This document shows positions 14,988 through 41,566 of a stretch of DNA of 64,000 nt, one piece after another. Below the pieces are notes generated by a model, which was given only the letters and a program-made list of their open reading frames with translations, was not told the origin of the DNA and ran no database searches. The stretch lies in NCBI GenBank assembly GCA_021647245.1, contig JAKIVC010000002.1, forward strand, positions 64,184 through 128,183, given 5' to 3'. The stretch's first letter is position 1. Every line of letters starts with the position of its first letter. Origin of the DNA: Gammaproteobacteria bacterium (lineage in GTDB: Bacteria > Pseudomonadota > Gammaproteobacteria > RBG-16-57-12). The translations under genes were made by a program, and so were the position numbers.

Positions 14988-16025
14988 CTAGCGGAATAGA
15001 TCCTTGTTGACGGCTTTTGTGGCAGCATCCTGCTTGCTGACCAAACCTTTTTGTACCAGGTTTTGTAGGCACTGATCCAGTGTTTGCATGCCAATCGCCT
15101 GGCTGGTTTGAAGTACCGAGTACATCTGCGGCACCTTCGCTTCGCGAATAAGATTACGAATTGCGGGCGTACCAATCATTATTTCGTGGGCCGCTATGCG
15201 CCCGCCACCCATCTTTTTCAGCAGTGATTGGGAGATAACCGCTTGCAGTGACTCAGAGAGCATCGCCCGCACCATCTCTTTTTCACCACCAGGAAAGACA
15301 TCGATAATCCGGTCGATGGTTTTCGCCGCTGAGCTGGTGTGGAGCGTGCCAAATACCAAGTGCCCGGTTTCAGCGGCTGAAAGCGCTAAACCGATGGTTT
15401 CAGGGTCACGCATTTCACCCACCAGAATAACATCAGGGTCTTCACGTAGCGCAGAGCGCAGTGACTCGGAAAAGCCAAGGGTGTCGCGATGAACTTCGCG
15501 TTGATTGATGAGGCATTTTTTTGATTCGTGCACAAATTCTATCGGGTCTTCAATGGTTAGAATATGGCCAAACTCATTCTCATTTTTGTCATTTACCATG
15601 GCGGCGAGGGTGGTGGATTTACCCGAGCCGGTAGGGCCCGTTACCAGCACCAGGCCGCGTGGATATTGTGCAATCCTCTTGAATATTTCGGGGGCACCCA
15701 GATCGTCCAGCGTGAGTATTTTTGAAGGGATGGTTCGGAATACCGCACCGGCTCCCCGGTTTTGATTGAAAGCATTGACACGAAAACGCGCTAAGTTGGG
15801 TATTTCGAAGGAGAAATCAGTCTCAAAGAACTCCTCGAAATCTTTGCGCTGTTTATCATTCATGATGTCATAAATCAGGCTCTGCACCGTTTTGTGGTCG
15901 AGTGCTGGCACATTAATTCGGCGAATATCACCGTCAACACGAATCATCGGCGGCTCACCCGCAGAGAGGTGTAGATCAGATGCGTTATTTTTCACACCAA
16001 AAGCGAGCAGTTCTGTAATGTCCAT
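14988..16025 (-). CDS. pilT: Type IV pilus twitching-motility ATPase.
   Basis: MDITELLAFGVKNNASDLHLSAGEPPMIRVDGDIRRI and Walker A GPTGSGKST. 345 aa. Confidence 0.92.
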   Translation of the reverse strand: MDITELLAFGVKNNASDLHLSAGEPPMIRVDGDIRRINVPALDHKTVQSLIYDIMNDKQRKDFEEFFETDFSFEIPNLARFRVNAFNQNRGAGAVFRTIPSKILTLDDLGAPEIFKRIAQYPRGLVLVTGPTGSGKSTTLAAMVNDKNENEFGHILTIEDPIEFVHESKKCLINQREVHRDTLGFSESLRSALREDPDVILVGEMRDPETIGLALSAAETGHLVFGTLHTSSAAKTIDRIIDVFPGGEKEMVRAMLSESLQAVISQSLLKKMGGGRIAAHEIMIGTPAIRNLIREAKVPQMYSVLQTSQAIGMQTLDQCLQNLVQKGLVSKQDAATKAVNKDLFR

Positions 16026-16215
16026 CTGTTATTCCCAATAATAAATTGTACCGAAGTCATCTTACCACCCTATGGTGTGGGTTGGTAAGCGGTTGATTAT
16101 TTGATGGTTGAGCATTGATTATAGCCGTGTATAGCGGCATTCTAGAAGAAAAACTTAGCCCCTGTAAGGCCTTTGTTCTCATTCCCAGATAGGGTCACGC
16201 ATACTGTACAAGCTC

Positions 16216-16233
16216 TTGATTCCACAGTGAAAC
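16216..16233 (+). repeat. Dispersed intergenic motif copy TTGATTCCACAGTGAAAC (pilT/yggS intergenic).
   Basis: Shares TTGATTCCACAG with 41492-41503 and with the reverse complement of 37957-37972. Shares CACAGTGAAAC with 50591-50604. Confidence 0.5.
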
Positions 16234-16309
16234 CAAACGCTTACACACTAACCTGGGGATGAGGGCTTTACGTGAAAGGTGGTTTCATCCTGCGGGGTGG
16301 TAGTATGAG

Positions 16310-17044
16310 GTGTCATATCCAACGGGAGAGGTGATGGTGAGTTCGCGACAAAATCCACTGGCGGAGCGTTATGCGCAGCTGATAATGCGTATTCGGCATG
16401 CCGAGCAACAGGCTGGCCGCTCTGTCGGTTCGGTGCAGCTATTGGCTGTTAGTAAAACGGTGGCCGCTGAGCGGCTGGGTTATGCTGCTCTGCTGGGGCA
16501 ACAGGCGTTTGGTGAGAATTACCTACAAGAGGCGTTGAATAAACAGGTTTTACTTGCCGAGCTTGATCTCCAGTGGCATTTTATTGGGCCGTTGCAATCC
16601 AATAAAAGCCGGGCAGTTGCAGAGAAGTTCAACTGGTTGCACACACTTGATCGGCTAAAATTGGCACGGCGGCTCTCAGCTCAGCGCCCCGAAAATATGC
16701 CACCCTTGAATATCTGCTTGCAAGTGAATATCAGTGGTGAGCCGAGCAAGTCCGGTGTATTACCTGACGAACTCTCACCGCTGGCGGCTGATATTGCCGA
16801 GTTGCCGGGGTTGCAATTGCGGGGTTTGATGGCACTGCCGGCCCCTTGTGATAAGTTTGATGAACAGCGTCGCGTATTTGCCTCAGTACGCAAGCTTTAT
16901 CAGCAGTTGATTGATGAGGGGCACCCGTTGGATACGTTGTCCATGGGAATGTCGGCAGACCTTGAGGCAGCGGTGGCGGAAGGTGCTACCATAGTACGCA
17001 TAGGCAGTGCACTGTTTGGTGCTCGTGATCATAAGATGCAGTAA
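16310..17044 (+). CDS. yggS: PLP homeostasis protein YggS.
   Basis: 244 aa, alanine-racemase-N-like fold. Synteny with proC and yggT. Confidence 0.8.
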   Translation: MSYPTGEVMVSSRQNPLAERYAQLIMRIRHAEQQAGRSVGSVQLLAVSKTVAAERLGYAALLGQQAFGENYLQEALNKQVLLAELDLQWHFIGPLQSNKSRAVAEKFNWLHTLDRLKLARRLSAQRPENMPPLNICLQVNISGEPSKSGVLPDELSPLAADIAELPGLQLRGLMALPAPCDKFDEQRRVFASVRKLYQQLIDEGHPLDTLSMGMSADLEAAVAEGATIVRIGSALFGARDHKMQ

Positions 17045-17056
17045 AGGGCTGGGTTT

Positions 17057-17881
17057 ATGGAACAGTGTAAAATTGTTTTTATCGGTGGCGGCAATATGGC
17101 CGGCAGTATTATGGGTGGTTTACTACAGGGTGGCTGCCAGGCAGAAAATATCTATATTTGTGACCCTAACCAAGAGCGGCTGACGGTTCTCCAGCAGCGC
17201 TATGGGGTGAATGTTTCGACCCGTAACGATGACTTTGTGGCGCTGGCGGATCTGTTGGTATTGGCGGTGAAGCCACAAGTGATGCACTCAGTGGTGGAAG
17301 GGATGGCCTCTAAAATAAGAGATGACACGCTACTGGTATCAGTAGTAGCCGGTATTCGTGGAAAGGATATTGAGTCTTGGCTGAAGGGTAATCACGCGAT
17401 TGTTCGTTGTATGCCAAACACACCGGCATTGGTGCAGAGTGGTGCCAGTGGCTTGTACGCAAATAGTCAGGTGAGCGATGCACAGCGTAACCTAGCCGAA
17501 TCCTTAATGCGGTCGGTAGGAATAGTCGTCTGGTTAGACCATGAAGAGCAGATGGATGCGGTAACAGCAGTTTCAGGCAGTGGTCCAGCCTACTTTTTTC
17601 TGGTGATGGAGGCGATGCAAAAGTCGGCAGAAAAACTAGGGCTTACCCCTGAAATGTCACGCCTGCTAACGGTACAGACTGCGCTTGGAGCCGCCAAAAT
17701 GGCGATGGAGAGTGAAGAGGGCGTGGCGGCACTACGGCACCGTGTTACCTCGCCAGGCGGTACCACTGAACAAGCAGTCAATACGTTACAGGCGGGAGGG
17801 GTTGAGGCTGCCTTTGATGATGCACTGCAAGCGGCTTGTCGTCGTTCAAAAGAGCTGGCAGAAATGTTTGGGGGTCGGTAA
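17057..17881 (+). CDS. proC: Pyrroline-5-carboxylate reductase.
   Basis: IGGGNMAGSIMGG Rossmann motif plus the P5CR C-terminal domain. Confidence 0.88.
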   Translation: MEQCKIVFIGGGNMAGSIMGGLLQGGCQAENIYICDPNQERLTVLQQRYGVNVSTRNDDFVALADLLVLAVKPQVMHSVVEGMASKIRDDTLLVSVVAGIRGKDIESWLKGNHAIVRCMPNTPALVQSGASGLYANSQVSDAQRNLAESLMRSVGIVVWLDHEEQMDAVTAVSGSGPAYFFLVMEAMQKSAEKLGLTPEMSRLLTVQTALGAAKMAMESEEGVAALRHRVTSPGGTTEQAVNTLQAGGVEAAFDDALQAACRRSKELAEMFGGR

Positions 17882-18468
17882 TGAGTGGCGAATATTTTGG
17901 CGCAGCCTCTATTTTTTTGGTGCGAACCCTGTTTGGACTTTACATCTTAGCGGTACTGCTGCGTTTTTTGTTACAGATGGTGCGTGCTGATTTTTATAAC
18001 CCAATTTGTCAGATTTTAGTTAAAGTGACGGATCCCGCGCTGCGGCCACTACGTCGAGTTATTCCAGGTCTCCTGGGTATCGATATGGCCGCTGTGGTAT
18101 TGCTGCTGCTGTTAAAGACGGCGGAGCTGTTTATCATTCAGCAGCTGGCAGGTGTGGGTGGCAATGTGATGGGTCTGTTTGTGCTGGGTATTGCTCAAAT
18201 GGTTGAGTTGACGCTGAATATTTTTTTCTTCTCGGTATTAGCCCAGGTGATTTTAAGCTGGGTTAATCCAGCTACAAACTATAATCCTGTGGTGGCACTG
18301 CTCCATGCACTGAATGAGCCGTTGATGCGGCCAGCCCGGCGCCTGCTACCCGCCATGTCAGGGCTGGATCTTTCACCGTTGCTGGTGATCATTGTGATAC
18401 AGTTGATAACAATGTTATTGGTGGCGCCACTCAATGATGTTGCACTGCGATTATTATCCGCAGCTTAA
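17881..18468 (+). CDS. yggT: YggT-family membrane protein.
   Basis: ATG overlaps the proC stop (TAATG). The ORF-track start at 17836 is probably an over-extension. Four TM segments with duplicated YGGT repeats. Confidence 0.75.
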   Translation: MSGEYFGAASIFLVRTLFGLYILAVLLRFLLQMVRADFYNPICQILVKVTDPALRPLRRVIPGLLGIDMAAVVLLLLLKTAELFIIQQLAGVGGNVMGLFVLGIAQMVELTLNIFFFSVLAQVILSWVNPATNYNPVVALLHALNEPLMRPARRLLPAMSGLDLSPLLVIIVIQLITMLLVAPLNDVALRLLSAA

Positions 18469-18594
18469 TCGCTTGATAGGCCATTATCTGCACGGTAAAA
18501 ATAAATTCTGTTAATACCCAGTAAATACAGACCGATACACTGTGATGTAAATGTAAAAAGGCAACTGGCCTTCTTCCCCAGGCGGATATGGAAA

Positions 18595-20662: not shown

Positions 20663-21730
20663 GTGCACCCTATGCAAAATCGCGATACCTTGCCAGATAC
20701 CATTCGTATGACTGAATATAGCCATGGTGCCGGTTGTGGCTGTAAAATATCACCTAAGTTGCTGGATGATATTCTCAAAAGCACAACACCTAACCCCACC
20801 TTTCCAAAATTGTTGGTGGGCTACGACACCAAGGATGATGCGGCGGTATTCGATTTGGGTAATGGCAGTTCGGTCATATCAACCACTGACTTCTTCATGC
20901 CGATTGTGGATGACCCCTTCGAGTTTGGGCAAATTGCGGCGACCAATGCGATCAGTGATGTTTATGCCATGGGCGGCACGCCGTTGATGGCCATCTCTAT
21001 TTTTGGCTGGCCGATTGAGACATTAGGAGCTGATGTTGCCTCACAGGTTATTGAGGGTGGCCGTCGCGCCTGCGCACTGGCCGGTATACCACTGGCGGGA
21101 GGGCACTCCATTGACTCACCCGAACCCATTTTTGGGTTGGCAGTAACCGGGCAGGTGGAAAATCGCCACCTGAAGCGCAACAGCCAAGCAGAGGCGGGCT
21201 GCAAACTCTATCTGACCAAGCCACTTGGTATCGGTATTTTGACCACTGCACAGAAAAAAAAGTGCCTTAAGCCAGCACACCGCCGGATCGGCCCCGAAGC
21301 GATGTGCCAGCTTAACAGTGCCGGTACTCAGTTTGCTAAGCTCCCGGCGGTCAAGGCGATGACGGATGTGACGGGGTTTGGCCTGATGGGGCACCTCACA
21401 GAGTTGTGTCTGGGGAGTCATTTACAGGCGCAACTGATCTTTGATGCCGTGCCGACGCTACCGGAGGTTGAATACTATCTGGCGCTAGGGTGTACTCCAG
21501 GCGGCACGCTACGAAATTTTGAAAGCTATGGTCACCATATTGGTGGCATGAGTGAACAGCAACAGATGATTTTGTGTGACCCACAAACCTCAGGCGGCCT
21601 CTTGGTGGCTGTTGCAGCCGAGGGCGAAGCTGAATTTTTAGCATTAACCGAAGCGCTAGGAATGTCATTGAGTCCGATAGGCCAGTTGAGCACCCCCGTC
21701 GCGAATCATGCTCTGGTGGAGATTATATGA
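20663..21730 (+). CDS. selD: Selenide, water dikinase (Cys-type).
   Basis: [13 protein letters not shown] active-site motif. Alternative start at MTEYSH (20708). Confidence 0.88.
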
Positions 21731-22842
21731 TGGAGCTTCCACAGGTTGACGACTATTCAGCGCTTTTTTTAGATGAAGTACCGATGATCGACCTGCGAGC
21801 CCCGCAGGAGTTTGAGCAGGGACGCTTTCAAAATGCGATAAACCTACCGTTAATGAACGATGAAGAGCGCAAGTTAGTGGGTATTTGCTATAAAGAACAA
21901 GGCCAGCAACAGGCGATTGCGCTGGGTCATGAGCTAGTAACCGGCGAGGTAAAACAGCAGCGCCTGGAGCGGTGGCTGCGGTTTGTAGAAGAGAATCCAC
22001 AGGGTGTTTTGTACTGCTTTCGTGGCGGACTACGCTCACAAATAACCCAGCGCTGGATCTATGAAGAGAGCGGCATCGTCTACCCACGAGTACACGGTGG
22101 CTACAAAACACTGCGCCGTTATTTGCTCGATGAGCTAGAGCGCTCCATTGCGCAGATACAGCCGACCATCCTCAGTGGACGCACTGGCACAGGCAAGACA
22201 CTGCTACTAAAGAAAATCAATAACAGCATCGACTTGGAAGGCGTCTATCATCATCGTGGTTCAGCATTTGGTCGTCACGCCACGCCACAACCGAGCCAGA
22301 TCGATGTGGAGAACCGGCTTTCAGTTGAGCTGCTGAAAAAAATCATATTAGCCGCTGAAGCAGCGCCCCAACTGCTGCTTGAAGATGAAGGGAGCAATAT
22401 CGGCTCACGCAACCTGCCCCACTCACTGATTGAGCGCATGGTGGCGGCACCCATCGTGGTACTGGAAATTCCACTAGCGCAACGGGTCGATATCGTATTC
22501 GATGAATATATTACGGCAGCGCTCTCTGAATATCAGCAGCTACTGGGCGACGAGCACGGCTTTACCACCTGGTCAGAAAACCTGCGCCAGGCACTTGGAC
22601 GGGTTAAACGTCGCTTAGGTGGAGAGCGTTACGGACTGCTTGATGCCGTGATGAGTGGTGCGATTTCTGACCAGCAACAACGGGGTGAAACATCGGCTCA
22701 CCGCGAGTGGATTCAGCGATTACTTAACGATTACTACGACCCAATGTATGACTATCAGTTACAGAAAAAAGCCGAGCGCATCACCTTTCGGGGCGATGAC
22801 AAAGCAGTAATTGAGTATCTTAATACTCAAAATATTACCTAA
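21727..22842 (+). CDS. selU: tRNA 2-selenouridine synthase.
   Basis: N-terminal rhodanese domain with CFRGGLRS and a P-loop TGTGKT. Overlaps the selD stop. Confidence 0.8.
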
Positions 22843-29754: not shown

Positions 29755-32319
29755 ATGATCGAAGCATATAATCAACACGTTGCTGAACGTGAAGCAGATG
29801 GCTTGCCCCCCTTGGCACTGAATGCGGAGCAAACAGCCGCACTCGTGGAATTGATTAAACAACCACCCGTGGGCAAAGAAGCATTTTTGGTGGAACTGCT
29901 GGTAGAGCGTGTGCCTGCCGGTGTAGATGATGCTGCTTACGTCAAAGCGGCCTTCCTTGCAGCCATTACAACGGGCGATGCCGTTTCACCGTTAATTGAT
30001 GCCGCCCGTGCCACTGAGTTGTTAGGCACTATGCTGGGTGGTTACAACATCGAGGCATTAATTGCAGCACTGGATAAGGATGCGATTGCACCGATTGCGG
30101 TCACCGCACTCTCAAAAACACTGCTGATGTTTGATGCTTTTAACGATGTGATCGCCAAGGCCAAGGCGGGTAACGGTTATGCCAAGCAGGTCGCGGATTC
30201 CTGGGCCAATGCTGAGTGGTTCACCAACAAACCTGAGATGCCAAAAGAGATTCAAGTCACCGTCTTCAAAGTGCCTGGTGAAACCAATACAGATGACCTC
30301 TCCCCCGCCTCAGAAGCGTGGAGTCGCCCGGATATTCCGCTCCATGCCAAGACCATGCTGGTGGCCAAAATGCCCGATGCAATGGAGAAGATTGCCGAAC
30401 TGAAAGCCAAGGGTAATCCACTCGCCTATGTGGGCGATGTGGTTGGAACCGGCTCTTCCCGTAAATCAGCCATCAACTCGGTGCTGTGGCATATGGGAAA
30501 TAATATCCCCTTCGTACCTAACAAGCGCCAGGGTGGAGTGATACTGGGTGGCAAGATAGCCCCCATTTTCTTTAATACGGCAGAAGACTCGGGCGCATTG
30601 CCGATTGAATGCGATGTCGCACAATTGAATATGGGTGATGTGATTACCATCAAACCCTATCAGGGCGTGATTGAAAATGAAGCAGGAGAGGTGATCTCCC
30701 GCTTTGATCTTAAGCCAGCCACGATGGCTGATGAAGTGCGAGCAGGGGGTCGTATCCCGCTGATTATTGGTCGATCGCTAACCGATAAAACCCGAGAAGC
30801 ACTGGACTTGTCGGCATCGACACTCTTCACCCGGCCAACACCCGCCGCAGAGACAGGGAAAGGTTATACTCTGGCGCAGAAGATAGTCGGCAAGGCGTGT
30901 AGTGTTGAGGGTATCCGCCCGGGCACCTATTGTGAGCCGCGTATAACAACGGTTGGCTCACAGGATACCACCGGCGCGATGACCCGAGATGAGCTGAAAG
31001 AGCTGGCATGTCTCGGTTTCTCTGCTGACTTGGTGATGCAATCGTTTTGCCACACAGCCGCCTACCCCAAGCCGGTTGATATTAGCCTGCAACACACCCT
31101 CCCCAGCTTCTTCAACAACCGTGGTGGTGTTGCGCTACGACCTGGGGATGGGGTGATCCACTCCTGGTTAAATCGGATGTTGTTACCCGACACGGTGGGG
31201 ACCGGGGGTGATTCCCACACCCGCTTTCCAATGGGTATCAGCTTTCCTGCAGGCTCTGGATTGGTGGCCTTTGCCGCTGCATTGGGCGTTATGCCGCTGG
31301 ATATGCCCGAGTCGGTTCTGGTGCGTTTTAAGGGCAAGATGCAACCAGGCATTACCCTGCGTGACCTGGTCAACGCGATTCCATTGGCAGCGATTCAGCA
31401 AGGTTTGCTGACGGTAGAGAAAACGGGCAAGAAAAATATTTTCTCGGGTCGCATTCTGGAGATTGAGGGTTTGGAGCAGATGAAGGTTGAACAAGCCTTT
31501 GAGCTATCCGATGCATCAGCCGAACGCTCTGCGGCCGGTTGTACAGTTAAACTGGATCAAGCACCGATCATCGAATACCTTAAATCCAACATCACACTGT
31601 TAAAGTGGATGATCGCCAATGACTATGCGGATGCCAAAACCCTCAGCCGCCGTGTTGAATCAATGGAGCAGTGGCTGGAAAACCCGGTATTGCTGGAGGG
31701 GGATGGTGATGCTGAATATGCAGAAATTATCGAGATTGATTTGGCCGAGATAAAAGAGCCGATTCTCTGCTGTCCCAATGATCCTGATGACGTTAAGTTG
31801 CTCTCAGAAGTGGCGGGCGAGAAAATTGATGAGGTCTTCATCGGTTCGTGTATGACTAATATTGGCCATTTCCGCGCAGCGGGTAAAGTGCTTGAAGCCT
31901 TTGGTGGCGCAGTTCCCACCCGCCTGTGGATCGCACCACCCACTAAAATGGACGAGCATCAACTAACGGAAGAGGGCTACTACAGCATCTACGGCAAAGC
32001 GGGAGCCCGCACTGAAATGCCTGGCTGCTCACTCTGCATGGGTAATCAGGCCCGCGTAGCAGACAGCGCAGTGGTGATGTCCACCTCAACCCGAAACTTT
32101 CCAAATCGCTTGGGTAAGGATGCCATGGTCTACCTGGGGTCGGCTGAGCTGGCGGCGGTTTGTGCGCAGATGGGCAAGATCCCCACGGTTGCTGAGTATC
32201 ATGAAGCGGTCAAAACTATAGAGCCACTGGCGGCTGATACCTATCGCTACCTCAATTTTCATGAAATTGAAGAGTACAAAAAGGTGGCCGATAAGGTGAT
32301 TCCAATTACCGCTGGGTAA
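29755..32319 (+). CDS. acnB: Aconitate hydratase B.
   Basis: 854 aa. N-terminal [38 protein letters not shown] matches the AcnB HEAT-like domain, followed by the aconitase domains. Confidence 0.92.
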
Positions 32320-32374
32320 TTGTCAGCACACCAATGTTGATAGCGGATCGATTATTGCAAAAGAAACACCTCTT

Positions 32375-33598
32375 ATGACGGTATGGGGAAATATGATGAG
32401 CTTTTTTGCTAAAAAAATGAAGTGGGGTGTTTGTGTCATTAGCGGCGCTACCCTAATGGTTGCAGGCTCGGCAGCATCGGCATCTGGAATCACTGAAGCG
32501 ATTAAAGGGGGTGAGGTCAGCGGTGATTTTCGTCTGCGAATGGAGACGGTGACTCAAGATAACGCCCTAAATGATGCAAATGCACTCACATTGCGCAGTC
32601 GGCTGGGTTATCGAACAGCGGACTACAAGGGATTGACTGGTTTTATGGAGTTTGAAAATGTTACCGCGCTGAATGATGATTATGAGCCGATGCCCAGTAA
32701 CCCGGCCAAAACAGAGTCAGTGGTGGCTGATCCGGAAGGCACCGAGGTTAATCAGCTCTATTTGAAGTATGTTTCGGGTGGTCACGCGATTACCGCAGGT
32801 CGCCAGCGGGTTATTCTGGATAATGCCCGTTTTGTGGGCAACGTTGGGTGGCGCCAAAATGAGCAGACATTTAATGCCATTGTCTTTACGGTAGATTCCG
32901 TTGCGGATACCTCACTTGTTTATGCTTACGTGGACGGGGTTAATACAATCCTCGGGGGTGAGTACGATACTTCCGCGTATATCTTTAACGCATCATATAC
33001 TGGCTTTAGTGCCGGAAAAATAACCGGTTACTCCTATGTTATTGAGCAGGATGATGTGCCTTCGGCCTCAAATTCAATCCTGGGTTTACGGTTTTCCGGG
33101 GCGACAGATGTAGCAGAAGCCAAGGTAAAATATACGCTTGAGTATGCGAAGCAGTCGGATTATGCCGAGGGCACTAATATTGATGCCCAATACCTGTTGG
33201 CTGAATTAGGCGCAGAATTCAGTGGTGTGGGTATCAAGCTGGGCTACGAAGTGTTGGGGGATGGTAAGGGTGCAAATGACGCTTCATTCAGCACGCCCTT
33301 AGCCACGAAACACGCCTTTAATGGCTGGGCAGATGCCTTTTTAACCACGCCTACCGATGGCCTGCAGGATATTTATCTCTCCGTTACCACCCAAATTGAA
33401 GGGGTAAAGCTGTTAGCCGTCTACCACGACTACTCCGCAGATACCGGCAGTGCCGACCATGGCTCGGAGATCAACCTGCTTGCCGCTAAAAAGTTTGCAG
33501 GCCACTACACTGCGCTACTAAAGTATGCAGATTACTCTGCGGGTGATAGTGGTACGGATACCAGAAAGCTGTGGTTGATGGGGCAGATGAAATTTTAG
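32375..33598 (+). CDS. Outer-membrane beta-barrel porin-like protein (alginate-export/OprD-like).
   Basis: Signal peptide, beta-strand periodicity, C-terminal ...WLMGQMKF ending in Phe. Confidence 0.5.
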   Translation: MTVWGNMMSFFAKKMKWGVCVISGATLMVAGSAASASGITEAIKGGEVSGDFRLRMETVTQDNALNDANALTLRSRLGYRTADYKGLTGFMEFENVTALNDDYEPMPSNPAKTESVVADPEGTEVNQLYLKYVSGGHAITAGRQRVILDNARFVGNVGWRQNEQTFNAIVFTVDSVADTSLVYAYVDGVNTILGGEYDTSAYIFNASYTGFSAGKITGYSYVIEQDDVPSASNSILGLRFSGATDVAEAKVKYTLEYAKQSDYAEGTNIDAQYLLAELGAEFSGVGIKLGYEVLGDGKGANDASFSTPLATKHAFNGWADAFLTTPTDGLQDIYLSVTTQIEGVKLLAVYHDYSADTGSADHGSEINLLAAKKFAGHYTALLKYADYSAGDSGTDTRKLWLMGQMKF

Positions 33599-33739
33599 GA
33601 GGAGGTCGGACTTAGGGTGAATCTACTGCGGAAAAGCCATTCTGGCCCATTTCTCTGATCCTTTTCGTTGAATATGCCCAATATTCGCCTCAAACGACCA
33701 AAAAAATGGACTCAAAATGGCTTTCCCTCGCTACGATTA

Positions 33740-33762
33740 CCTAAGCCCGACAGCCTCCTAGC
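33740..33762 (+). repeat. 22-bp intergenic repeat CCTAAGCCCGACAGCCTCCTAGC, copy 2.
   Basis: See 20569-20592. Confidence 0.5.
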
Positions 33763-33875
33763 CGAGTTTTACCACGGACAAAAAACAGCAAAAATTGTCG
33801 ACCCCTTCTCTTTTCTGATAAAAGCGCATTGCGAGGCCTATGGGGGCAAGGTAAGTTAATTATCTTGCTCCTGAG

Positions 33876-34967
33876 GTGAATGAGATGTTCCGATATTTAG
33901 TAGTGGCTGCGCTGTTTCCTATGTTGTCCGGCTGTGGTGGAGATACCCCGGCATCATCCAGTGAACCAGAGCGTGTTGAAAAAATAGTCGCTCGAGAGAG
34001 TAACCGTAGCTGCCTTGCTCCGGCGGATGCTATCGATACCGCGACCCGGCTCTCCACCACAGGCTGTTTTACAGATGTTAGCAACCAGATAATGGCGGGT
34101 GGGGTGATCCCCTACACCGTCAATAGCGTGTTGTGGTCCGATGGTGAGAGCAAAGGGCGTTATTTTGCAGTGCCGGATGGCACGACCATCAGCTTAACGG
34201 TGGACGAATCTTCAATTGTTGCCAGTAATGGCACTAAAAATGGTGATTTCAACTTTCCGGTAGGCGCGGTGGTGATCAAACACTTCTATAGTGGCAGCCG
34301 TATCGTTGAGACCCGCTTGCTGATGAACCATGCCAATGATGGTTGGGGTGGCTACGCCTATCAGTGGGATGAGTCACAGAGTGACGGTACCCTGCTGGTT
34401 GGCTCAAATAGCATCACCACACCGGTCAGCCACTATTTCCCGAGCCGCGAAGAGTGTATGGAGTGCCATACGGATGCCGCTCGGGTGTTATTAGGGCCGG
34501 ATACTCTACAACTCAATTACCCCCTTTACTATACGGATGGCACAGAAGAGAACTATCTCGATGCTTTGGTTCGATTAAATTACCTCTCGGCACCGTTGCT
34601 GGCGGATTATAAGGTGGATCGGCTCTATGCAATTGACGATAGCGACGCACCATTAGAGCAGCGAGCCAGAAGCTATTTGCACAGTAACTGCTCGGGCTGT
34701 CACCGCACTGGCGCACCGCAAGGTGGCTTTGATCTTCGTTACACCTCATCGTTTGTAAACAATGTTTGTGGTATCGCTGCAGCAGAGCCGACCAGCCCCA
34801 CCGGAGGGTTGCTGATCGACCCCGGCAATGCTGATAACGCCACTATTCAGCAGCGACTCGCCTCTATGGGGAGCATTCAAATGCCACCTATCGGGCGAGA
34901 GCAAACCGACCCCGAAGCGGTTCAAGTGATGGCTGATTGGATCAATAGCCTGCAGGGCTGTGATTAA
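33876..34967 (+). CDS. Putative dihaem c-type cytochrome lipoprotein.
   Basis: Lipobox MLSGC. Two CxxCH motifs (CMECH and CSGCH), the second followed by GAPQGGFDLRY and MPPIG. Confidence 0.5.
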   Translation: MNEMFRYLVVAALFPMLSGCGGDTPASSSEPERVEKIVARESNRSCLAPADAIDTATRLSTTGCFTDVSNQIMAGGVIPYTVNSVLWSDGESKGRYFAVPDGTTISLTVDESSIVASNGTKNGDFNFPVGAVVIKHFYSGSRIVETRLLMNHANDGWGGYAYQWDESQSDGTLLVGSNSITTPVSHYFPSREECMECHTDAARVLLGPDTLQLNYPLYYTDGTEENYLDALVRLNYLSAPLLADYKVDRLYAIDDSDAPLEQRARSYLHSNCSGCHRTGAPQGGFDLRYTSSFVNNVCGIAAAEPTSPTGGLLIDPGNADNATIQQRLASMGSIQMPPIGREQTDPEAVQVMADWINSLQGCD

Positions 34968-37612
34968 CCCAGCAACTTTTTTAACTCCGGCACACATGAG
35001 CCACAATTTGTGCCGGCATTCAGATAGCTACCAATCTCTTCCACACTTTTCAAGCCATGTTTTTGGATCGCCTCTCGAATACTGTTTTCACCTACCTTGA
35101 AACAGGCGCAGACCACACGCCCGGTATCAACCTGGCCGACCGGTGGCTTTCCAGTGAGCAGTGCACGGCGCTCATCATTATCCAGCACCTCTTTTTCAAA
35201 AAGTGAGGCGAGCCAACTGCGGGGTGGCAGCGCTTTGTCCGGGGCGATGAAAATACAGCTCTCCACTTGATCTCCTGTCATACGAATACCTCGATAGGTG
35301 TTTGCGCCGTTATCCAGCAGTTCGACCCAGTTGACATCATTATTTGAGGTGCAAAGATAACTTCTCGCCCATGCGGGGAGATCTTTGGAGCGTTGCTCAC
35401 CCGCCACTTCGTATCGATAGTGGTTATTGCCGGTTGCCCTTGCCCAGTAACAGACCCCTTCCAGTTTTAATGCGCGGCGCGAAAGGATAAAGCCGTGCCA
35501 TGCGGTTTGGTAAGGCTTAAGCTGCACCGGCGTATGTTTAAACTCAGGTTGGCCCGAAAGCGGGTCTACCGCAGGATTGACCACTGCGGAGGCTTTTCCC
35601 CTGCTGGAAAACTGCTCGCTCCAGTGCATCGGCGCAAACAATTCACCACGGCGCTGGCCGTTGTCCAAGCGTACTCGCCCGATCATCTCACCCCAGCGGC
35701 TGGTCACCGTGGCTAACGCATCCTCATTGATAGAGAGCGCCACGGCATCATCAGGATGAATGGCGATGTAGGGTTCGGGGCTATGCTCAGATAGCCGTGG
35801 CGCCTTTCCAGTGCGGGTCATGGTGTGCCACTGGTCGCGTACCCGCCCAGTATTCAGAATAAAGGGAAAGCTGTCACAGGGCATGTGTGCGGGTAGCCGT
35901 GGCTCAATGGCTTGAAACTGTGCCTTGCCTGATGGCGTGAAAAAATGGCCATCACTAAACATGCGAGCACTCCCCGCAGGCTGCTGTTGATTCACTGGCC
36001 ACTGGATGGGTGATAGCTGGTGGTAACTCTGTTGAGTTTGACTGCTCAGTGCCGAAAGGTCGAAGTCACGCTCTCCGTTGTTTCTATATCCGGAAAGAGC
36101 CGCGTGTTCGTTAAATATTTCGTAAGGGTGTTGATAATTAAAACCATCGCTATACCCCATACGCTTGGCCACCTCAGAGATTATCCACCAATCGGGTTTT
36201 GCTTCACCGGCAGCCGCCTGAAAAGCTCTCTGGCGTGAGATACGTCGTTCAGAATTGGTAACGGTGCCGCTCTTCTCCCCCCAGCCTTGGGCCGGTAATA
36301 AAATATTGGCACGGAGGGTGGTGTCGGTCTGCTTAACGCAATCGGAGACCACTACAAACTCGCACTGTTTGATCGCTTCTGCAACGTGGTCTGCATTGGG
36401 CATGCTGGCTGCGGGGTTGGTGGCCATGATCCATACAGCCTTGATCTTTCCCTTGGCAATATCATCAAACATATCTACCGCCTTGCGGCCGCTTTGTTTA
36501 GGAATGGCGGGTGAGCCCCAGAAGCTTTGTACTAAAGTACGGTGCGCGGGGTTTTTTATCTCCATATGAGCGGCCAACATATTGGCCAACCCGCCTACTT
36601 CGCGCCCTCCCATGGCGTTTGGTTGGCCAGTAAAAGAGAAGGGGCCCATGCCGGGGCGACCGATACGCCCGGTGGCCAGATGGCAGTTGATAATGGCATT
36701 GACCTTATCCGAACCACTGGTTGATTGATTAATGCCCTGAGAGTAGACAGTGACCACCCGCTCTGTGCGGGAGAAGAGTCGATAAAACGCTTGAACCACA
36801 GACACTTCGAGGCCACAGCGTAGTGCCACGGAGTCGACGCTAGGCGCGGTTTTTTCTGCCATGCGGAGTGCGGTCTCAAACCCCTCGGTATAAGCATTCA
36901 AATAACTGTGGTTTATTTCACCATCCCGCTGCAGATAACTTAGCAAGCCATTAAACAGTACGGTATCGGTACCAGAACGCAGGGGCAGGTGGAGGTCGGC
37001 AATGTCACAGCTGGGGGTCTCTCTGGGGTCGATTACTACCACCATCAGATCGGGGTTGACCCGCTTTGCCTGGTTGATTCGCTGAAACAGTACCGGATGA
37101 CACCAGGCTGCATTGGTGCCGGCCAGTACAATCAGCTTTGCTCGTTCCAGATCTTCATAACAGCAGGGCACGGTGTCTGACCCAAAAGCGCGTTTATGGC
37201 CTGTGACAGAAGAGGACATGCAGAGCCGCGAGTTGGTATCAATATTGGCTGTGCCGATATAACCTTTGATCAGCTTATTGGCGACATAGTAATCTTCAGT
37301 CAAGAGTTGCCCCGACACATAAAAAGCGACCGCGTCAGGGCCGTGCTGCTCAACGGTTGCTAAAAACCTCTCCGCGACCTCCCCAAGCGCCTGATCCCAG
37401 CTGGCGGGTATTCCCTCAATTTCGGGCTGGAGCAGCCGCCCCTCCAGTCCCAAGGTTTCGCCCAACGCCGACCCTTTGGAGCAGAGCTTGCCAAAATTAG
37501 CGGGGTGCAGCGGGTCACCTTGGACTGTGTAGCCGCCATCAGCATTCGCTGCTACCAGCACTCCGCAGCCAACACCACAATAGGGGCAGGTTGTTTTTGT
37601 CATCTTGGACAT
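34964..37612 (-). CDS. nasA: Assimilatory nitrate reductase catalytic subunit (molybdopterin oxidoreductase with a C-terminal BFD-like 2Fe-2S domain).
   Basis: N-terminal 4Fe-4S Cys motif TTCPYCGVGCGV. Mo-bisMGD domains. C-terminal CACFKV...CGSC. Confidence 0.85.
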   Translation of the reverse strand: MSKMTKTTCPYCGVGCGVLVAANADGGYTVQGDPLHPANFGKLCSKGSALGETLGLEGRLLQPEIEGIPASWDQALGEVAERFLATVEQHGPDAVAFYVSGQLLTEDYYVANKLIKGYIGTANIDTNSRLCMSSSVTGHKRAFGSDTVPCCYEDLERAKLIVLAGTNAAWCHPVLFQRINQAKRVNPDLMVVVIDPRETPSCDIADLHLPLRSGTDTVLFNGLLSYLQRDGEINHSYLNAYTEGFETALRMAEKTAPSVDSVALRCGLEVSVVQAFYRLFSRTERVVTVYSQGINQSTSGSDKVNAIINCHLATGRIGRPGMGPFSFTGQPNAMGGREVGGLANMLAAHMEIKNPAHRTLVQSFWGSPAIPKQSGRKAVDMFDDIAKGKIKAVWIMATNPAASMPNADHVAEAIKQCEFVVVSDCVKQTDTTLRANILLPAQGWGEKSGTVTNSERRISRQRAFQAAAGEAKPDWWIISEVAKRMGYSDGFNYQHPYEIFNEHAALSGYRNNGERDFDLSALSSQTQQSYHQLSPIQWPVNQQQPAGSARMFSDGHFFTPSGKAQFQAIEPRLPAHMPCDSFPFILNTGRVRDQWHTMTRTGKAPRLSEHSPEPYIAIHPDDAVALSINEDALATVTSRWGEMIGRVRLDNGQRRGELFAPMHWSEQFSSRGKASAVVNPAVDPLSGQPEFKHTPVQLKPYQTAWHGFILSRRALKLEGVCYWARATGNNHYRYEVAGEQRSKDLPAWARSYLCTSNNDVNWVELLDNGANTYRGIRMTGDQVESCIFIAPDKALPPRSWLASLFEKEVLDNDERRALLTGKPPVGQVDTGRVVCACFKVGENSIREAIQKHGLKSVEEIGSYLNAGTNCGSCVPELKKLLG

Positions 37613-37956
37613 TATTATTGCCTTTTACATACAGATAAACATTGTTGAGCAAATTTTGCGCCATATTCACATTGTGGTGGTCAAGGGGGTAAATGACGAC
37701 ACAGCGTATCTGGTTTGTGGCTTGGCCACTTTTTCCACACCCTTTTGGTGCGACATTGCCACCATATGCCTATATTAGGTGCGGCTAATACTCTGTTTTC
37801 AGGAGAAAATTAGCCCCTCAAAATAAAATAATATGCCCTTGAGGTAATTGATATAGGGGTTGCAGGCTATAGAAGAGTCTGCTTATACTGCGATAGTGCG
37901 CTTTTAACTGTGGTGAGTACTTGGCTCCTACCCTATCTTCATGTAGGAGTGTAAAG

Positions 37957-37972
37957 CACTGTGGAATCAATC
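37957..37972 (-). repeat. Dispersed motif copy (reverse complement GATTGATTCCACAGTG) in the nasA/glbN intergenic region.
   Basis: Exact 14-mer TTGATTCCACAGTG. Confidence 0.5.
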
Positions 37973-38060
37973 TCTTGCACAGTATACGCACTTCTATTTG
38001 AGGGTTAGGGTTTTAGTCAAAAGCAAGTGAAGCAGTTTGCCGTATACCGTTGTAACTTGA

Positions 38061-38080
38061 TAACGATCTGATAATCGTTA
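38061..38080. promoter_or_regulatory. Perfect 7-6-7 inverted repeat TAACGAT-ctgata-ATCGTTA about 85 bp upstream of glbN.
   Basis: Read directly from the sequence. It lies in the 550-bp nasA/glbN divergent intergenic region. Confidence 0.4.
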
Positions 38081-38162
38081 ATAAAGTGTTATTTTTTTAG
38101 TGTATTTATGTTTAACTGCACAAGGTAAGAGACAAAACTATTTTCTTTATAGGAGAGAACAC

Positions 38163-38519
38163 GTGAGTTCATTATTTGATCGTTTGGGTGGTAATGCGGC
38201 TGTAGATGCAGCGGTAGATATTTTTTACGCTAAGGTATTGGCAGATGATCGTATCAACCAGTTTTTTACAACGGTTGATATGGAGACACAAGCGGCCAAG
38301 CAAAAAGCCTTTTTAACCATGGCTTTTGGTGGTCCGAATAGCTATACCGGGCTGGATATGCGTGAAGGGCATAAACATATGAACCTGAACGAAGGTCATT
38401 TTACTGCGGTGGTTGAAAATCTGGCCGCTACACTGAAAGAACTGGGTGTTTCTGATGCCGATATTGCCGAAGTTGCTGAAGTTGCCAATAGCGTAAAGGA
38501 TGATGTGCTAAACCGTTAA
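38163..38519 (+). CDS. glbN: Truncated haemoglobin, group I (trHbN-like).
   Basis: GTG start preceded by AGGAGA. VSSLFDRLGG...DIFYAKV (B10 Tyr)...REGHKHMNL (proximal His). The ORF-track start at 38100 is an over-extension. Confidence 0.8.
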   Translation: MSSLFDRLGGNAAVDAAVDIFYAKVLADDRINQFFTTVDMETQAAKQKAFLTMAFGGPNSYTGLDMREGHKHMNLNEGHFTAVVENLAATLKELGVSDADIAEVAEVANSVKDDVLNR

Positions 38520-38682
38520 GAACAGCTGCTACGGATAATAGCGCCTCAACACATGCTGTGTTGAGGCGTTTTTTATTGCAAAATATTACTCGTTTCTATA
38601 TTTATTAAAATGGGTTTGATTGAGGCCTCTTTACGAGATCTCTTTAAGATAAAAATACCTTTTACTGCCAAGGTGGGCGTAA

Positions 38683-39231
38683 GTGTCAAAATTACTCAAA
38701 ATATTTGAGAAGCTCGCGGGCGAGCGGCGGGGCCGAGTGCGTCACGTTGAGATTCTGATCGCAACGGTGGCGGCGTTAACTGCACTTTTGATGGTGGGGT
38801 GGATTAGTCGCTCGGTTGCGGGTGATCAGGCTGGCCTCTATTTAATGGCCTCAATGGGCGCATCAGCGGTATTGATTTTTGCTGTGCCTGCTACTCAAAT
38901 GGCAAGGCCGTGGGCCTTCTGTTGCGGGCACTTTGTCTCTGCCTTTGTGGGTGTGAGTTGTAGTTTGTTGATAGGGGATCTGGTTTTAGCGGCGGCACTC
39001 GCGGTCTCGATCTCTATCTTTTTGATGAGCTACCTGCGTTGCCTGCATCCGCCGGGTGGCGCTGCGGCAATGATTCCTATTGTTAGTGGCGAGTCAGTTA
39101 CTGCAATGGGCTACAGTTTTCTACTTATCCCTGTTGGCATTAATGTATTGGTGATGCTGCTGTTTTCACTGGCTTACTTTCGCTGGATGGCACAGCGGGA
39201 GAAGCGGTTTATGGCGCAGCGATCCAAGTAG
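38683..39231 (+). CDS. HPP-family membrane protein (the family includes plastid and cyanobacterial nitrite transporters).
   Basis: 4 to 5 TM segments. Signature CLHPPGGAAAMIPIV. Confidence 0.7.
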   Translation: MSKLLKIFEKLAGERRGRVRHVEILIATVAALTALLMVGWISRSVAGDQAGLYLMASMGASAVLIFAVPATQMARPWAFCCGHFVSAFVGVSCSLLIGDLVLAAALAVSISIFLMSYLRCLHPPGGAAAMIPIVSGESVTAMGYSFLLIPVGINVLVMLLFSLAYFRWMAQREKRFMAQRSK

Positions 39232-39241
39232 CGGCTCTTAG

Positions 39242-40189
39242 CTACTCCGCCAGTTGCAGTATAAACATCTCGACTACAAGCAAGGTACTTAAGAAGGTGG
39301 AAAATAGACTGATGTAGAGTGTTTTGTATTGGTTGTCATACTCTTTTTCGAGGGTATTGCTGAGTTGTTTCATGAGTGAGTTGAGCTGCTTGAAGCTAAG
39401 GCCGATGGCATCACTGGCAATAGCAAAATAGTGATCAGGTTTGATCATAATTTTTTTTGCGCTCAGGAATTCCCTGTCTAGAGTGCTCAAAAACAGCGCA
39501 ATACTTTTCTGGCATTGGGTGAAATCCAACATGTTTTTATCGATTTTTTGATGCCTTAAAATGGTAATTGTCTCATCACATACCAGTGAGGCCTTTTGAT
39601 GAAGATAGCCCAACTTACTCCGGCTTTGTGTATTTAGACGGGCTTGAGTTGCGGCTCCAGTGCCAATTCCCCTTGCCTGACCCAGCACTTCGGTAACAAA
39701 GGGGAGTATGTTGATACCGATCTCCAGCAGTCCATGCAGCTGCTTGTCATCACTGTTGTCCAGCTTGCTCAGGCTGCCGGTATCACTAATTAGATTAAGT
39801 AGTTTTGAGATAATGGCGGTGTGCAGGGAGAAGCTCTCCTCAGCACTGAGTGATGAGAAGTTTTCAGTTACTTTATGCCAGCCCTTCTTAACCTCAAGAT
39901 AACCGGGTGAGCTTGAAAATTCAGGGTAATCGTTACTTATTTTCTGTAGCTGCCGGCCTATTTTTTTTTGGTGCGCATAGCACTTCTCCTTGAAAGCTGA
40001 GTTGCCTTTCAGTAGCGCATTGCTCATGCCGCGATGCTGGGGAATGCTCTCTAGTAACTGGAAAAGCTGGCGGATAACCAATAATCCTGCCTGCCGCCGA
40101 GCTGAAAAACGCCGTTGAACCACCACAGAGCGTAACCACGCCACTGAGATAAAAAATAAAATGAGAGAGACCAGAGTAAGCGTCAGCAT
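39242..40189 (-). CDS. Stand-alone TM-periplasmic sensor-TM protein. The periplasmic domain is NIT-like (nitrate/nitrite sensing) or of the PilJ type.
   Basis: N-terminal TM, then about 270 helical residues with [16 protein letters not shown] and [13 protein letters not shown], then a C-terminal TM and no output domain. Its start overlaps the MCP stop (ATGcTGA). Confidence 0.5.
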
Positions 40190-41340
40190 GGTGACTTCTC
40201 TTGTGAACGGGATAACTTGACCAGATAGCCGGCTGTTTCGGATGCCTCTTGGATCACTTCGGTGGTCTGTTGAGCCATCTGATTTATTTTTTCGATATTG
40301 ATGGAGATTTCGCTACTGCTGCTATTCTGCTGGTGAATTGCCAGGCTGATATTTTCCATTGCCGCAACGGTGGATTTCGCCCCTTGTTTAATTGACTGAA
40401 GGGCGTTGTGGGTCGAATCAGAGAGCCCAACACTGTTATTGATGGCGTTGATGATCTGCTCCATACCGTTGCTGACATTCTGCACATCTTGTTGAATAGC
40501 GGATATTTGTTGATTAACTTTGGAGGCCGCCTGCTGGGAGCGTTGCGCCAACTGCCTTACTTCATCAGAAACCACAGAGAAGCCACGGCCATGTTCACCT
40601 GCACGAGCTGCTTCGATGGCTGCATTCAGTGCCAGCAGGTTAGTCTGGTTTGCTATATCATTGATGGTGTCGATGATTGAGCTGATCTCTTGCGAGCGTG
40701 ATAGCAGGCCGTTGATCTGTTCGGTTGATTGATTAATTGAATGAGAGGCCGTCTGGATTTCGGTCGCCATGGTTTTAACAATGTCATCACCTTCAGTCGC
40801 ATAGGTGTCCAACATTTTTGAGGTGCTGTCGGCTTCGTCAGCAAGCCCCGAGATGGTATCGATATTACCGCTTAACTGCTCCATCTCATTTAAAATGCTA
40901 GCCACCGAAGTCTGTTGAATGGTCATCATTTCAGTCGAGTGCCCATTCATTTTTGCTAAATCAAGTGCCGCACTGTGTAGCTCTTCGCTGGCGCTTTTAC
41001 TCTTTTCGTCCAAGCGTTCAACCGCAACCCGCTGCTGATGAAATGCGCTGAATATGGGGTTAAACTCATTCTCTTTATAGCAAGCGGTCTCCCCCTTTGT
41101 CAGGCGGCGTATAGTGTGTAGCTGATAGTGGTGATAAGCAAAAATCAGGTAGAGGGTGATGCTCAGCGTTATGATGACAAGGAGTGTCAGGTCAAATTGC
41201 AGTGCGGGTTCAAGCGTCGGGATAAGATAGAGCAGCGCAGAGGCTAAGGGCAGTACGGTAAGTGATACGATAAAAATCAGTTTTTGGCGTAGTGAGAGTC
41301 GTTCAAAAAGAGCGGTGACGGGTTTGAATAATTGATCCAT
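40183..41340 (-). CDS. Methyl-accepting chemotaxis protein lacking a periplasmic ligand-binding domain.
   Basis: Two TMs separated by about 10 residues, then the MCP signalling domain ([35 protein letters not shown]). Confidence 0.8.
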
Positions 41341-41491
41341 TCTGCTATTCCTCGTTTTCCTCGTCTATCAGGTAGCCCAGAATAACATTATGATGCGGGT
41401 TTCGAGTTACTCCGTACTACTACCTATAAGGGGTTTGGAACAAGTGAGGGTAATTCCCCTAATCCCTAGGTAGCAACACGTATGCAGGCCC

Positions 41492-41566
41492 TTGATTCCA
41501 CAGCAAAGCAAAAAATCGTCACCGAACCTACGGGTGCTACTCCTATTTTTTATTTCACTGTGAAAC
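41492..41566 (+). repeat. Composite element: TTGATTCCACAG ... CACCGAACCTACGGGTGC ... TTTCACTGTGAAAC.
   Basis: Architecture parallels 50591-50662. Confidence 0.5.

Follow-up and report, generated by a model that had tools for sequence, protein, structure and literature searches.

The DNA analysed here (the window) is a stretch of 64,000 nucleotides from a metagenome-assembled genome (MAG) whose source record reads only 'Gammaproteobacteria bacterium'. As listed in Table 1, a nitrate reductase gene (nasA) is followed, on the opposite strand, by genes for a group-I truncated haemoglobin (trHb, trHbN) and a membrane protein of the HPP family. Two minus-strand genes converge on the HPP gene, first one for a methyl-accepting chemotaxis protein (MCP) and then one for a protein with a NIT domain. 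The proteins are on record as MCF6217368-72, where NasA is named 'molybdopterin-dependent oxidoreductase' and the NIT protein 'hypothetical'. An earlier note on this DNA had pointed to nasA, trHb and HPP as a neighbourhood for handling nitrate, nitrite and nitric oxide (NO). All three genes are present at the locus, and their identities were borne out by Pfam, by the aligned Tyr B10 and His F8 of the globin, and by the RCLHPPGG motif of the HPP protein. The locus comprises at least four transcription units and is flanked by housekeeping genes. An Rfam scan of the whole window gave no family match, and thus no known riboswitch, leader or small RNA was recognised in the spacers or in the dispersed repeat described below. 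In summary, gene-order comparisons indicate that the unit conserved among relatives is not nasA-trHb-HPP but a block of four genes, trHb-HPP-NIT-MCP.

Table 1. Features of the locus and copies of its dispersed repeat, by position in the window (aa, amino acids; TM, transmembrane).
Feature	Position	Strand	Description
Dispersed repeat, further copy	~16170..16260	-	low-copy intergenic repeat, ~70-80 nt
nasA	34964..37612	-	882 aa; Pfam Molybdop_Fe4S4, Molybdopterin, Molydop_binding, C-terminal Fer2_BFD
Sigma-54-type -24/-12 promoter TGGCGCaaaatTTGCT	37648..37663	-	36 nt 5′ of the nasA ATG
Two NtrC-like sites, GCACCAAAAGGGTGT (37737-37751) and GCACCTAATATAGGCAT (37766-37782)	37737..37782	-	conserved in the window/L032/L039 alignment
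33-nt block CAGTATAAGCAGACTCTTCTATAGCCTGCAACC	37858..37890	-	identical in three genomes while the neighbouring spacer diverges
Dispersed intergenic repeat copy, core CTGTGGAATCAA	37931..38001	+	~70 nt; from blastn and alignment of copies
trHb upstream block CCGTTGTAA..GAyGATCT..CGTTAA	38047..38081	+	~35 nt, contains the palindrome
7-6-7 palindrome TAACGAT-ctgata-ATCGTTA	38061..38080	+	unique in the window; inside the CCGTTGTAA block
trHb (trHbN)	38163..38519	+	118 aa, GTG start, Pfam Bac_globin E 4e-19
Intrinsic terminator between trHb and HPP	38540..38577	+	14-bp stem, 3-nt loop, T-run
HPP-family membrane protein	38683..39231	+	182 aa, no CBS domain; TM_HPP (PF04982) E 2.5e-43
Stand-alone TM-NIT-TM protein	39242..40189	-	315 aa, TM segments 1-19 and 293-311
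Sensor-less MCP	40183..41340	-	385 aa; TM 22-40 and 51-69, ~10-residue loop, MCP signalling domain
Dispersed repeat, second copy	~41440..41530	-	5′ of the MCP gene, approximate limits

The same locus was found in several MAGs of the window species, and the block trHb-HPP-NIT-MCP is kept in the window species and three sister species. In the first (L032/33/39; 97% trHb identity), speD-acnB-porin-cytochrome-nasA lies on one side of the block and the far flank differs. In the second (L007/L040; 94%), the block lies behind glnA-ntrBC-OmpA-YceI-like genes, 2.5 kb from glnA-ntrBC in L007. In the third (L034/35; 91%), it lies behind CitMHS-rotamase. Neither L007/L040 nor L034/35 has a nasA within 10 kb of the block. 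In total, the four-gene block occupies three genomic places across the clade. Since it is kept without nasA in sister species and at three places, it is this block that is conserved as a unit.

The MCP has, according to Pfam, an MCPsignal domain alone; neither a HAMP domain nor a ligand-binding domain was detected by Pfam. The stop codon of its gene overlaps the start of the NIT gene by 7 nt, and the overlap of -7 was found in all clade members. The two genes are predicted to be translationally coupled. The 315-aa product of the second gene is best modelled as a stand-alone periplasmic NIT sensor between two membrane anchors, because its relatives carry the Pfam signal, its model matches the NasR fold, and its Arg motifs are invariant. 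Most relatives in the family have precomputed PF08376 matches, and members pass the Pfam NIT model (for example, the partner in L055 with 46.3 bits over model positions 2-238 of 239). An AlphaFold2 (AF2) model of the window protein, built on 23 homologues, reached a predicted local distance difference test (pLDDT) score of 91.2. In a Foldseek search its sole significant fold match in the PDB was NasR (4akk_A; E 6e-5, probability 1.0, TM-score TMq 0.64); the next match had an E of 0.07. Two motifs are invariant, Q51-H-R53-G and G170-Q-A-R173-G. A nitrate-binding motif G-x-x-R is described for NarX, NarQ, McpN and NasR, and the NasR NIT domain is a nitrate receptor (PMC8199190). G170-Q-A-R173 fits this motif and P50-Q-H-R53 is a variant of it; both Arg residues are invariant, and the likeness to the NasR arginines is one of motif. 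In another MAG of the window species (L002; GCA_024278815.1), acnB, the NIT gene and Lnb_N are each broken up into two open reading frames (ORFs; 1074-3637, 10560-11505 and 16568-18475), which are either assembly frameshifts or pseudogenes.

The HPP protein has five hydrophobic segments, and its RCLHPPGG motif lies at residues 118-125, with H122-P-P-G125 invariant in 40 homologues. Its AF2 model has a pLDDT of 91.8. A search of the PDB by sequence with the HPP profile gave no matches, and a fold search with the model gave no significant structural relative. Thus, structure tells nothing about the HPP mechanism. For cyanobacteria and chloroplasts, PMC7438415 cites Maeda 2014 for nitrite transport by an HPP protein, and by that secondary account nitrite uptake for assimilation is the sole assayed function of the family (Maeda 2014 via PMC7438415). 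The window protein shares with these transporters the TM_HPP family, the invariant HPPG, a small multi-TM build and a place beside nitrate-assimilation genes; the likeness is one of family level. I infer from family membership that it is a putative nitrite (anion) channel or transporter. Outside the clade, even its nearest relatives do not exceed 50% identity, and the related members of such modules carry CBS domains.

The start of the trHb gene was placed at GTG 38163 behind the ribosome-binding site AGGAGA, replacing an ORF listed from 38100. The resulting 118-aa product matches the gene calls at the same locus in two MAGs, and exactly this protein is recorded as 'group 1 truncated hemoglobin' (MCF6217369.1). 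It belongs to PF01152, and its best solved relatives are group-1 trHbs, with Tetrahymena 3aq5 at E 2e-35 and Chlamydomonas THB1 (4xdi) at E 1e-23 among them. It aligns end to end with Tetrahymena trHbN, cyanoglobins, Chlamydomonas THB1 and Mycobacterium tuberculosis HbN. Tyr22 (B10), Gln43 (E7), Gln47 (E11) and His70 (F8) were placed by alignment to T. pyriformis 3aq5 and its Q46E/Q50E mutants. No cognate flavoprotein that could serve as a trHb reductase was found in the 64-kb window.

Behind the trHb gene, all six sequences compared, which come from four species, retain the terminator hairpin with its GGCGTTTTTTATTG tail; the stems have changed and the pairing is preserved. The spacer from the terminator to the HPP gene ranges from 127 to 314 nt, varying by insertions. 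L039 and L040 carry insertions of 150-190 nt in this spacer. Such large insertions mean that HPP either has a promoter close to its start or tolerates big changes in its leader. Because the terminator is conserved with pairing-preserving changes and the block upstream of the gene is conserved in three contexts, trHb is predicted to be a transcription unit of its own, with a conserved upstream element and a terminator.

The remaining gene, nasA, encodes a protein with domains PF04879, PF00384 and PF01568, that is, the [4Fe-4S] Cys motif, molybdopterin and molybdopterin guanine dinucleotide (MGD)-binding domains, followed by Fer2_BFD (residues 833-881, E 8e-17). The N-terminal [4Fe-4S] motif of the earlier note was found as C9-x2-C12-x3-C16...C44; its C-terminal CxxC...CxxC was not, the BFD-type motif being C-x-C...C-x2-C. 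The N-terminus MSKMTKTTCPYCG opens directly with the Fe-S motif, and a twin-arginine (Tat) signal is absent. The closest solved relative is NapA of D. desulfuricans (2jio, 357 bits), with whose segment nprlCMasav the Mo-ligand Cys segment nsrlCMsssv aligns. A 'C-M' around the Mo-ligand Cys is a signature of nitrate reductases, and formate dehydrogenases have 'U/C-H' there. All NCBIfam equivalog models compared stayed below their cut-offs (given in parentheses), with 487 bits for Fdh-alpha (666), 450 for NasC (1100) and 406 for NasA_Halo (1000). By its architecture, the protein is predicted to be the catalytic subunit of a cytoplasmic Mo-bisMGD nitrate reductase of assimilatory type, with a BFD-like [2Fe-2S] cluster at the C-terminus. 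The earlier note had seen neither nirBD nor NasFED beside nasA, and this extends to the whole 64-kb window, transporters included: NirB/NirD, NasFED/NrtABC and NarK are all missing from it.

The nasA-trHb spacer (37613-38162) is exactly 550 nt, the length given earlier, once trHb starts at GTG 38163. Where the block abuts nasA, which is the case in two species, the spacer is 450-550 nt long and its control region is conserved. The promoter TGGCGCaaaatTTGCT is the sole match to TGGCRC-N5-TTGCW on both strands of the 64 kb, and it is identical in the sister genomes L032 and L039, which also carry nasA. It has the GG-N10-GC -24/-12 element at the proper distance and candidate activator sites upstream. 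The conserved blocks 5′ of the sigma-54 site are of the type GCACC-N5-GGTGT. Both GCACCAAAAGGGTGT and GCACCTAATATAGGCAT resemble the NtrC consensus GCACC-N5-GGTGC and are putative sites by this resemblance. An antiterminator leader of the ANTAR/NasR or NasT type was considered for nasA and excluded, since the sigma-54 promoter leaves a leader of only ~25 nt. At the other end, the nasA stop codon overlaps the stop codon of a convergent dihaem cytochrome gene by 4 nt. Because nasA has its own conserved sigma-54 promoter and a convergent, overlapping downstream gene, it is predicted to be monocistronic and a separate sigma-54 unit. Between acnB and nasA (32375-34967), the window has a gene for an Opr/alginate-export-like porin and this cytochrome c gene, which is of the SO2930 family; both are kept in L032.

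The earlier note had also drawn attention to a palindrome and a dispersed motif in the spacer. The palindrome is indeed perfect and unique in the window, where 0.11 matches with up to two mismatches would be expected by chance. It was rejected as a conserved operator: it is perfect in the window species alone, L032 and L039 keep five of the seven arm positions, and the spacing differs in L007. What is conserved is the CCGTTGTAA block around it, which is kept in the window, L032, L039, L007, L040 and L034/35 (four species) regardless of the upstream gene and thus across three different genomic contexts. By eye, a TTGAT half-site is the sole match to an FNR/DNR box at the palindrome, and this candidate was dropped. 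An NsrR operator 5′ of the window trHb was likewise rejected (best site with 6 of 16 mismatches, p_shuffle 0.9), and no NsrR-like site with three or fewer mismatches was found in 22 kb around the locus. The dispersed motif is present as well. Related copies were found by blastn and alignment at 37960(+), 16216(-) and 41492(-). The copy in the spacer is an insertion, being a gap in L032 and L039, and a part in the regulation is not supported. The repeat carries an ACTGTG...CACAGT dyad and matches no Rfam family. The trHb..MCP block is bracketed by two copies of the repeat, at 37.9 kb and 41.5 kb, which are inverted relative to each other.

Does the block occur in distant lineages? When metagenomes were scanned with the NIT profile, 74 loci were retrieved. 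Among all NIT-bearing loci, 44 have a split, permuted pair (an MCP gene directly 5′ of a NIT gene of ~300 aa, written MCP>NIT below, with gaps of -7 to +25 nt), and 13 have an ordinary fused NIT-MCP receptor. Clustering at 60% identity left ~19 split and 9 fused lineages. HPP, trHb, a Fer2-FAD-NAD reductase or NnrS lies beside the pair in 6 of the ~19 split lineages, versus 0 of the 9 fused ones. L037 has trHb, the Fer2-FAD-NAD reductase, HPP and MCP>NIT; L054 has trHb, the reductase, HPP-CBS, MCP>NIT and NnrS; and L041/46 has trHb, the reductase and MCP>NIT. In L060/61, MCP>NIT is followed by HPP-CBS and then by an AcnB 78% identical to that of the window, and L042 has NIT and HPP. The NIT proteins of all these loci are ~30% identical to that of the window, and gene order and orientation vary. 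Thus, the association appears to be under selection rather than to reflect common ancestry of one segment. In a related gammaproteobacterium (L061:226-6375), MCP>NIT>HPP-CBS lies directly before acnB, and in the window (29755-41340) acnB lies 5 kb from the module; the acnB linkage may be the ancestral position of the module. In a broader search, the NIT profile matched 5,200 cluster representatives among 1.84 billion, and stand-alone proteins (340 aa or fewer) made up 67 of the 150 best matches. No paper on a NIT-MCP split pair, on split chemoreceptors or on their linkage to HPP(-CBS), trHb-reductase or NnrS was found in the open-access literature, which is no proof of novelty, and nothing relevant was found there on NnrS together with HPP.

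The trHb by itself leads to a different neighbourhood. A genome scan with trHb gave 25 loci. HPP, NIT or MCP was found only in the clade member L007 among them, and NasA in none. Since 24 of the 25 orthologue loci have no NasA, HPP or NIT, trHb as such is no marker of nitrate assimilation. In 15 of the 24 other loci, from diverse taxa (L010, L012-L015, L017, L019-L023 and L025-L028; reductase at ~10.4-11.5 kb in full-length loci), a gene for a Fer2-FAD_binding_6-NAD_binding_1 flavoprotein lies directly 3′ of trHb. By its sequence, this looks like an operon type encoding a split flavohaemoglobin-like pair. Outside the window clade, an NsrR-type 11-1-11-like operator lies 5′ of trHb in 11 of 25 loci (for example, AACATATATTTCAAATACATGTT), with 3-4 or fewer mismatches in 16 positions and a p_shuffle of 0.013 or less. 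The motif was checked against E. coli sites from chromatin immunoprecipitation sequencing such as ytfE AAGATGCATTTAAAATGCATCTT (PMC5320621). In all four trHb-adjoining MCP>NIT loci examined (L037, L041, L046 and L054), which are among the 11, an NsrR-like operator lies 5′ of trHb and nowhere else in the locus.

These results suggest that the locus consists of units that are transcribed separately and share an N-oxide theme: a nitrate reductase under Ntr control beside a portable trHb/HPP/MCP>NIT module for sensing and handling N-oxides. I would give this composite reading a probability of roughly 0.45, somewhat short of even. The N-oxide theme of the earlier note has become more plausible with the downstream NIT sensor and MCP, which that note had not mentioned, and with relatives that carry the trHb reductase, NsrR-like operators and NnrS. 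The analysis establishes the gene identities, the folds, the promoter and terminator elements, and how the module is conserved and recurs. The following scheme can be drawn, in which all biochemical activities, the ligand of NIT, its contact with the MCP and a functional link to nasA are inferred. Nitrogen limitation probably switches on nasA through NtrC and sigma-54, and nitrate would then be reduced to nitrite in the cytoplasm. The nitrite most likely goes to a reductase encoded elsewhere, or it, or a related small anion, crosses the inner membrane via HPP. NO would arise as a side product when nitrite meets molybdo- and haem enzymes, and trHbN, acting as an NO dioxygenase, most likely returns it to nitrate. 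The NIT protein most likely senses a periplasmic N-oxyanion and signals to the MCP by TM-TM contacts. Associated in the membrane, the two would most likely form a two-polypeptide chemoreceptor that steers the cell in gradients of nitrate/nitrite (N-oxides).

Several points weigh against the composite reading. Neither a nitrite reductase nor a nitrate transporter nor an electron donor for NasA can be seen in the 64 kb, and therefore the assimilation pathway cannot be closed from the window. In two of the four clade species nasA is not beside the module, and coupling to nitrate reduction is therefore not obligatory. Among the split MCP>NIT lineages with full flanks, the majority lack both HPP and trHb nearby. 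The window NIT protein itself matches Pfam NIT weakly (E 0.0027, 18.5 bits against a gathering score of 24.9), and the NIT profile gave no match in the PDB by sequence. In P. aeruginosa PA4520, the NIT domain showed no binding of nitrate or nitrite (PMC6381276). An HPP protein 52% identical to that of the window (P0044) adjoins a LysR regulator, with no N-oxide genes nearby. Finally, the window clade has neither a reductase adjacent to trHb nor the NsrR-like operator.

The main rival is a kit for defence against, and avoidance of, nitrosative stress, beside which nasA is incidental. Here trHbN would remove NO coming from outside with the help of a reductase encoded at another locus, nitrite/nitrate would leave through HPP, and NIT-MCP would drive escape. 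The relatives speak for such a kit, as they pair the module with an NsrR-like operator, the trHb reductase and NnrS and have no nitrate reductase there. The module is also without nasA in L007/L040 and L034/35, and nasA is under a separate sigma-54 promoter. However, the NsrR-like site and the adjacent reductase, precisely the features specific to NO, have been lost from the window clade. Moreover, the module abuts nasA across a conserved shared control region in two species and lies close to glnA-ntrBC in L007, and nitrite uptake for assimilation is the sole experimentally tested HPP function. I consider the stress kit rather unlikely.

Less survives of the model held earlier, in which nasA and a single divergent trHb-HPP operon are co-regulated, HPP handling the nitrite from NasA and trHb the NO from nitrite. 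The divergent layout with its shared 550-bp spacer is conserved in the window, L032 and L039, and narK-bjgb-flp-nasC, an operon discussed below, would be a precedent. Nevertheless, a strong terminator is conserved between trHb and HPP, the spacer behind it varies widely by insertions, and two sister species keep trHb-HPP without nasA. The palindrome is not conserved as such, and the copy of the dispersed motif is an insertion. Thus, one divergent trHb-HPP transcript is unlikely, nasA as a separate unit missing beside the block in half of the species is hardly an integral partner, and the model as a whole is improbable. Most improbable is that the genes are chance neighbours acting outside N-oxides (for example, in O2/redox buffering, or with another anion or ligand): a NIT domain may bind ligands other than nitrate, most of the HPP family is uncharacterised and one relative stands outside any N context, and 24 of the 25 trHb orthologue loci lack NasA, HPP and NIT nearby, but four families recurring together in varied order and orientation at ~30% identity would be unlikely by chance for genes present about once per genome, and NnrS and the NsrR-like sites provide an independent NO link.

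Returning to the composite reading, a wider version of it may be put forward tentatively, as a possibility more doubtful than the reading itself. Stand-alone TM-NIT-TM proteins and the sensor-less two-TM MCPs encoded upstream of them could be widespread split, permuted chemoreceptors of two polypeptides, with the signal passing inside the membrane. A subset of these would be dedicated to N-oxides and travel with effector genes of its own, for NnrS, for an anion channel of the HPP(-CBS) type and for trHbN, the last either accompanied by a reductase or not; in the window, it would be docked onto the Ntr-controlled nitrate reductase.

The locus recalls narK-bjgb-flp-nasC of Bradyrhizobium, an operon in which, according to PMC6965051, nitrate assimilation is coupled with NO detoxification. 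In both cases an assimilatory nitrate reductase lies beside a haemoglobin and a transporter of nitrate/nitrite type, and the globin would remove by-product NO. In contrast to that operon, the window locus is not a single operon: nasA has its sigma-54 promoter, trHb ends at a terminator, and mcp and nit form a convergent operon. Its globin, a 2/2 group-I trHb, is not homologous to Bjgb, a 3/3 single-domain haemoglobin, and its putative transporter HPP is not homologous to NarK of the major facilitator superfamily. A Flp-type reductase, found in relatives, is absent from the window, the pair of NIT sensor and MCP is an addition, and the link to nasA is not conserved across sister species. The locus fails membership of that operon type and would, if at all, be a non-homologous variant of the same idea by analogy. 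A second parallel is found in algae, where Chlamydomonas THB1 goes with nitrate reductase and Heterosigma akashiwo has an NR2-2/2HbN fusion (PMC4304232, PMC9837059). There, too, a group-I trHb is tied to an assimilatory nitrate reductase, and dioxygenation of NO to nitrate is proposed to feed assimilation. Unlike the algal enzymes with Mo-co/haem/FAD, the window nitrate reductase is of the Mo-bisMGD type, and the link is one of gene adjacency and not of fusion or shown electron transfer.

For the sensor, the likeness is to NasR NIT-ANTAR (4akk) and to fused NIT-MCPs such as PA4520. The NIT fold is shared, the domain is periplasmic between two TM helices as in fused NIT-MCPs, and fused relatives were recovered with the same NIT profile. 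Unlike in NasR and PA4520, the window sensor is a separate polypeptide, encoded after a sensor-less MCP and translationally coupled to it, that is, split and permuted. In the haloarchaeal SRI-HtrI and SRII-HtrII complexes, a sensor-less MCP-type transducer with two TM segments receives its signal from a separate membrane sensor through helix-helix contacts. The proposed signalling from NIT to MCP in the membrane would be analogous. In contrast to the 7-TM rhodopsins, the window sensor is a two-TM protein with a periplasmic four-helix bundle, and the NIT-MCP interaction is a proposal. With regard to the Hmp/NsrR regulon, the relatives' trHb and Fer2-FAD-NAD reductase behind an NsrR-like 11-1-11 operator mimic a split Hmp; the window copy differs in lacking both the reductase and such an operator.

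A built-in NO safety valve for nitrate assimilation is established for one rhizobial operon and for algae. If the composite reading is true, an uncultured marine-type gammaproteobacterium has arrived at the same NO-safety logic with non-homologous parts, trHbN and HPP. The four-gene block matters more than this nasA-trHb-HPP logic. It offers a testable genomic context for bacterial HPP/HPP-CBS proteins and for NIT domains, whose ligands are disputed, and, if the wider version above is true, it would be the first functional context for bacterial HPP proteins. It also points to a chemoreceptor made of two separate membrane proteins. The recurrence of the block in distant bacteria, beside NO defence genes, suggests that the means to sense and handle nitrate, nitrite and NO come as a portable kit, and that motility, transport and detoxification of these compounds can be inherited as one portable unit. 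This is of interest for the way in which bacteria of the sea and of sediments make use of N-oxide gradients and withstand them.

Three further observations were made. A trHb 80% identical to that of the window lies between two tandem three-gene sets in L036:5910-19141 (GCA_050294515.1, JBNKOF010000047.1). Each set encodes a 660-aa flavoprotein with Pyr_redox_2, Rubredoxin_C and Fer2_BFD domains, a multihaem cytochrome c of ~441 aa and a Tll0287-like protein of ~192 aa. The flavoprotein resembles the N-terminal half of NirB without the sirohaem domain, and an NrtABC-like ATP-binding cassette transporter follows the sets. This may be an unusual cytochrome-based N-oxide reductase cluster. At the left edge of the window (835-3452) there is a gene for a PilJ-domain MCP (677 aa) with a CheW-like gene, and pilT and pilU lie at 13765-16025; together these are the genes of a chemosensory system of the type-IV-pilus kind. 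The nitrate-binding domain of McpN is one of the PilJ-type domains. At 20663-22842, a SelD-like gene (AIRS/AIRS_C) overlaps with a second gene, whose product has a P-loop and matches rhodanese weakly. This second gene may encode a tRNA 2-selenouridine synthase, and the pair would then serve selenium utilisation.

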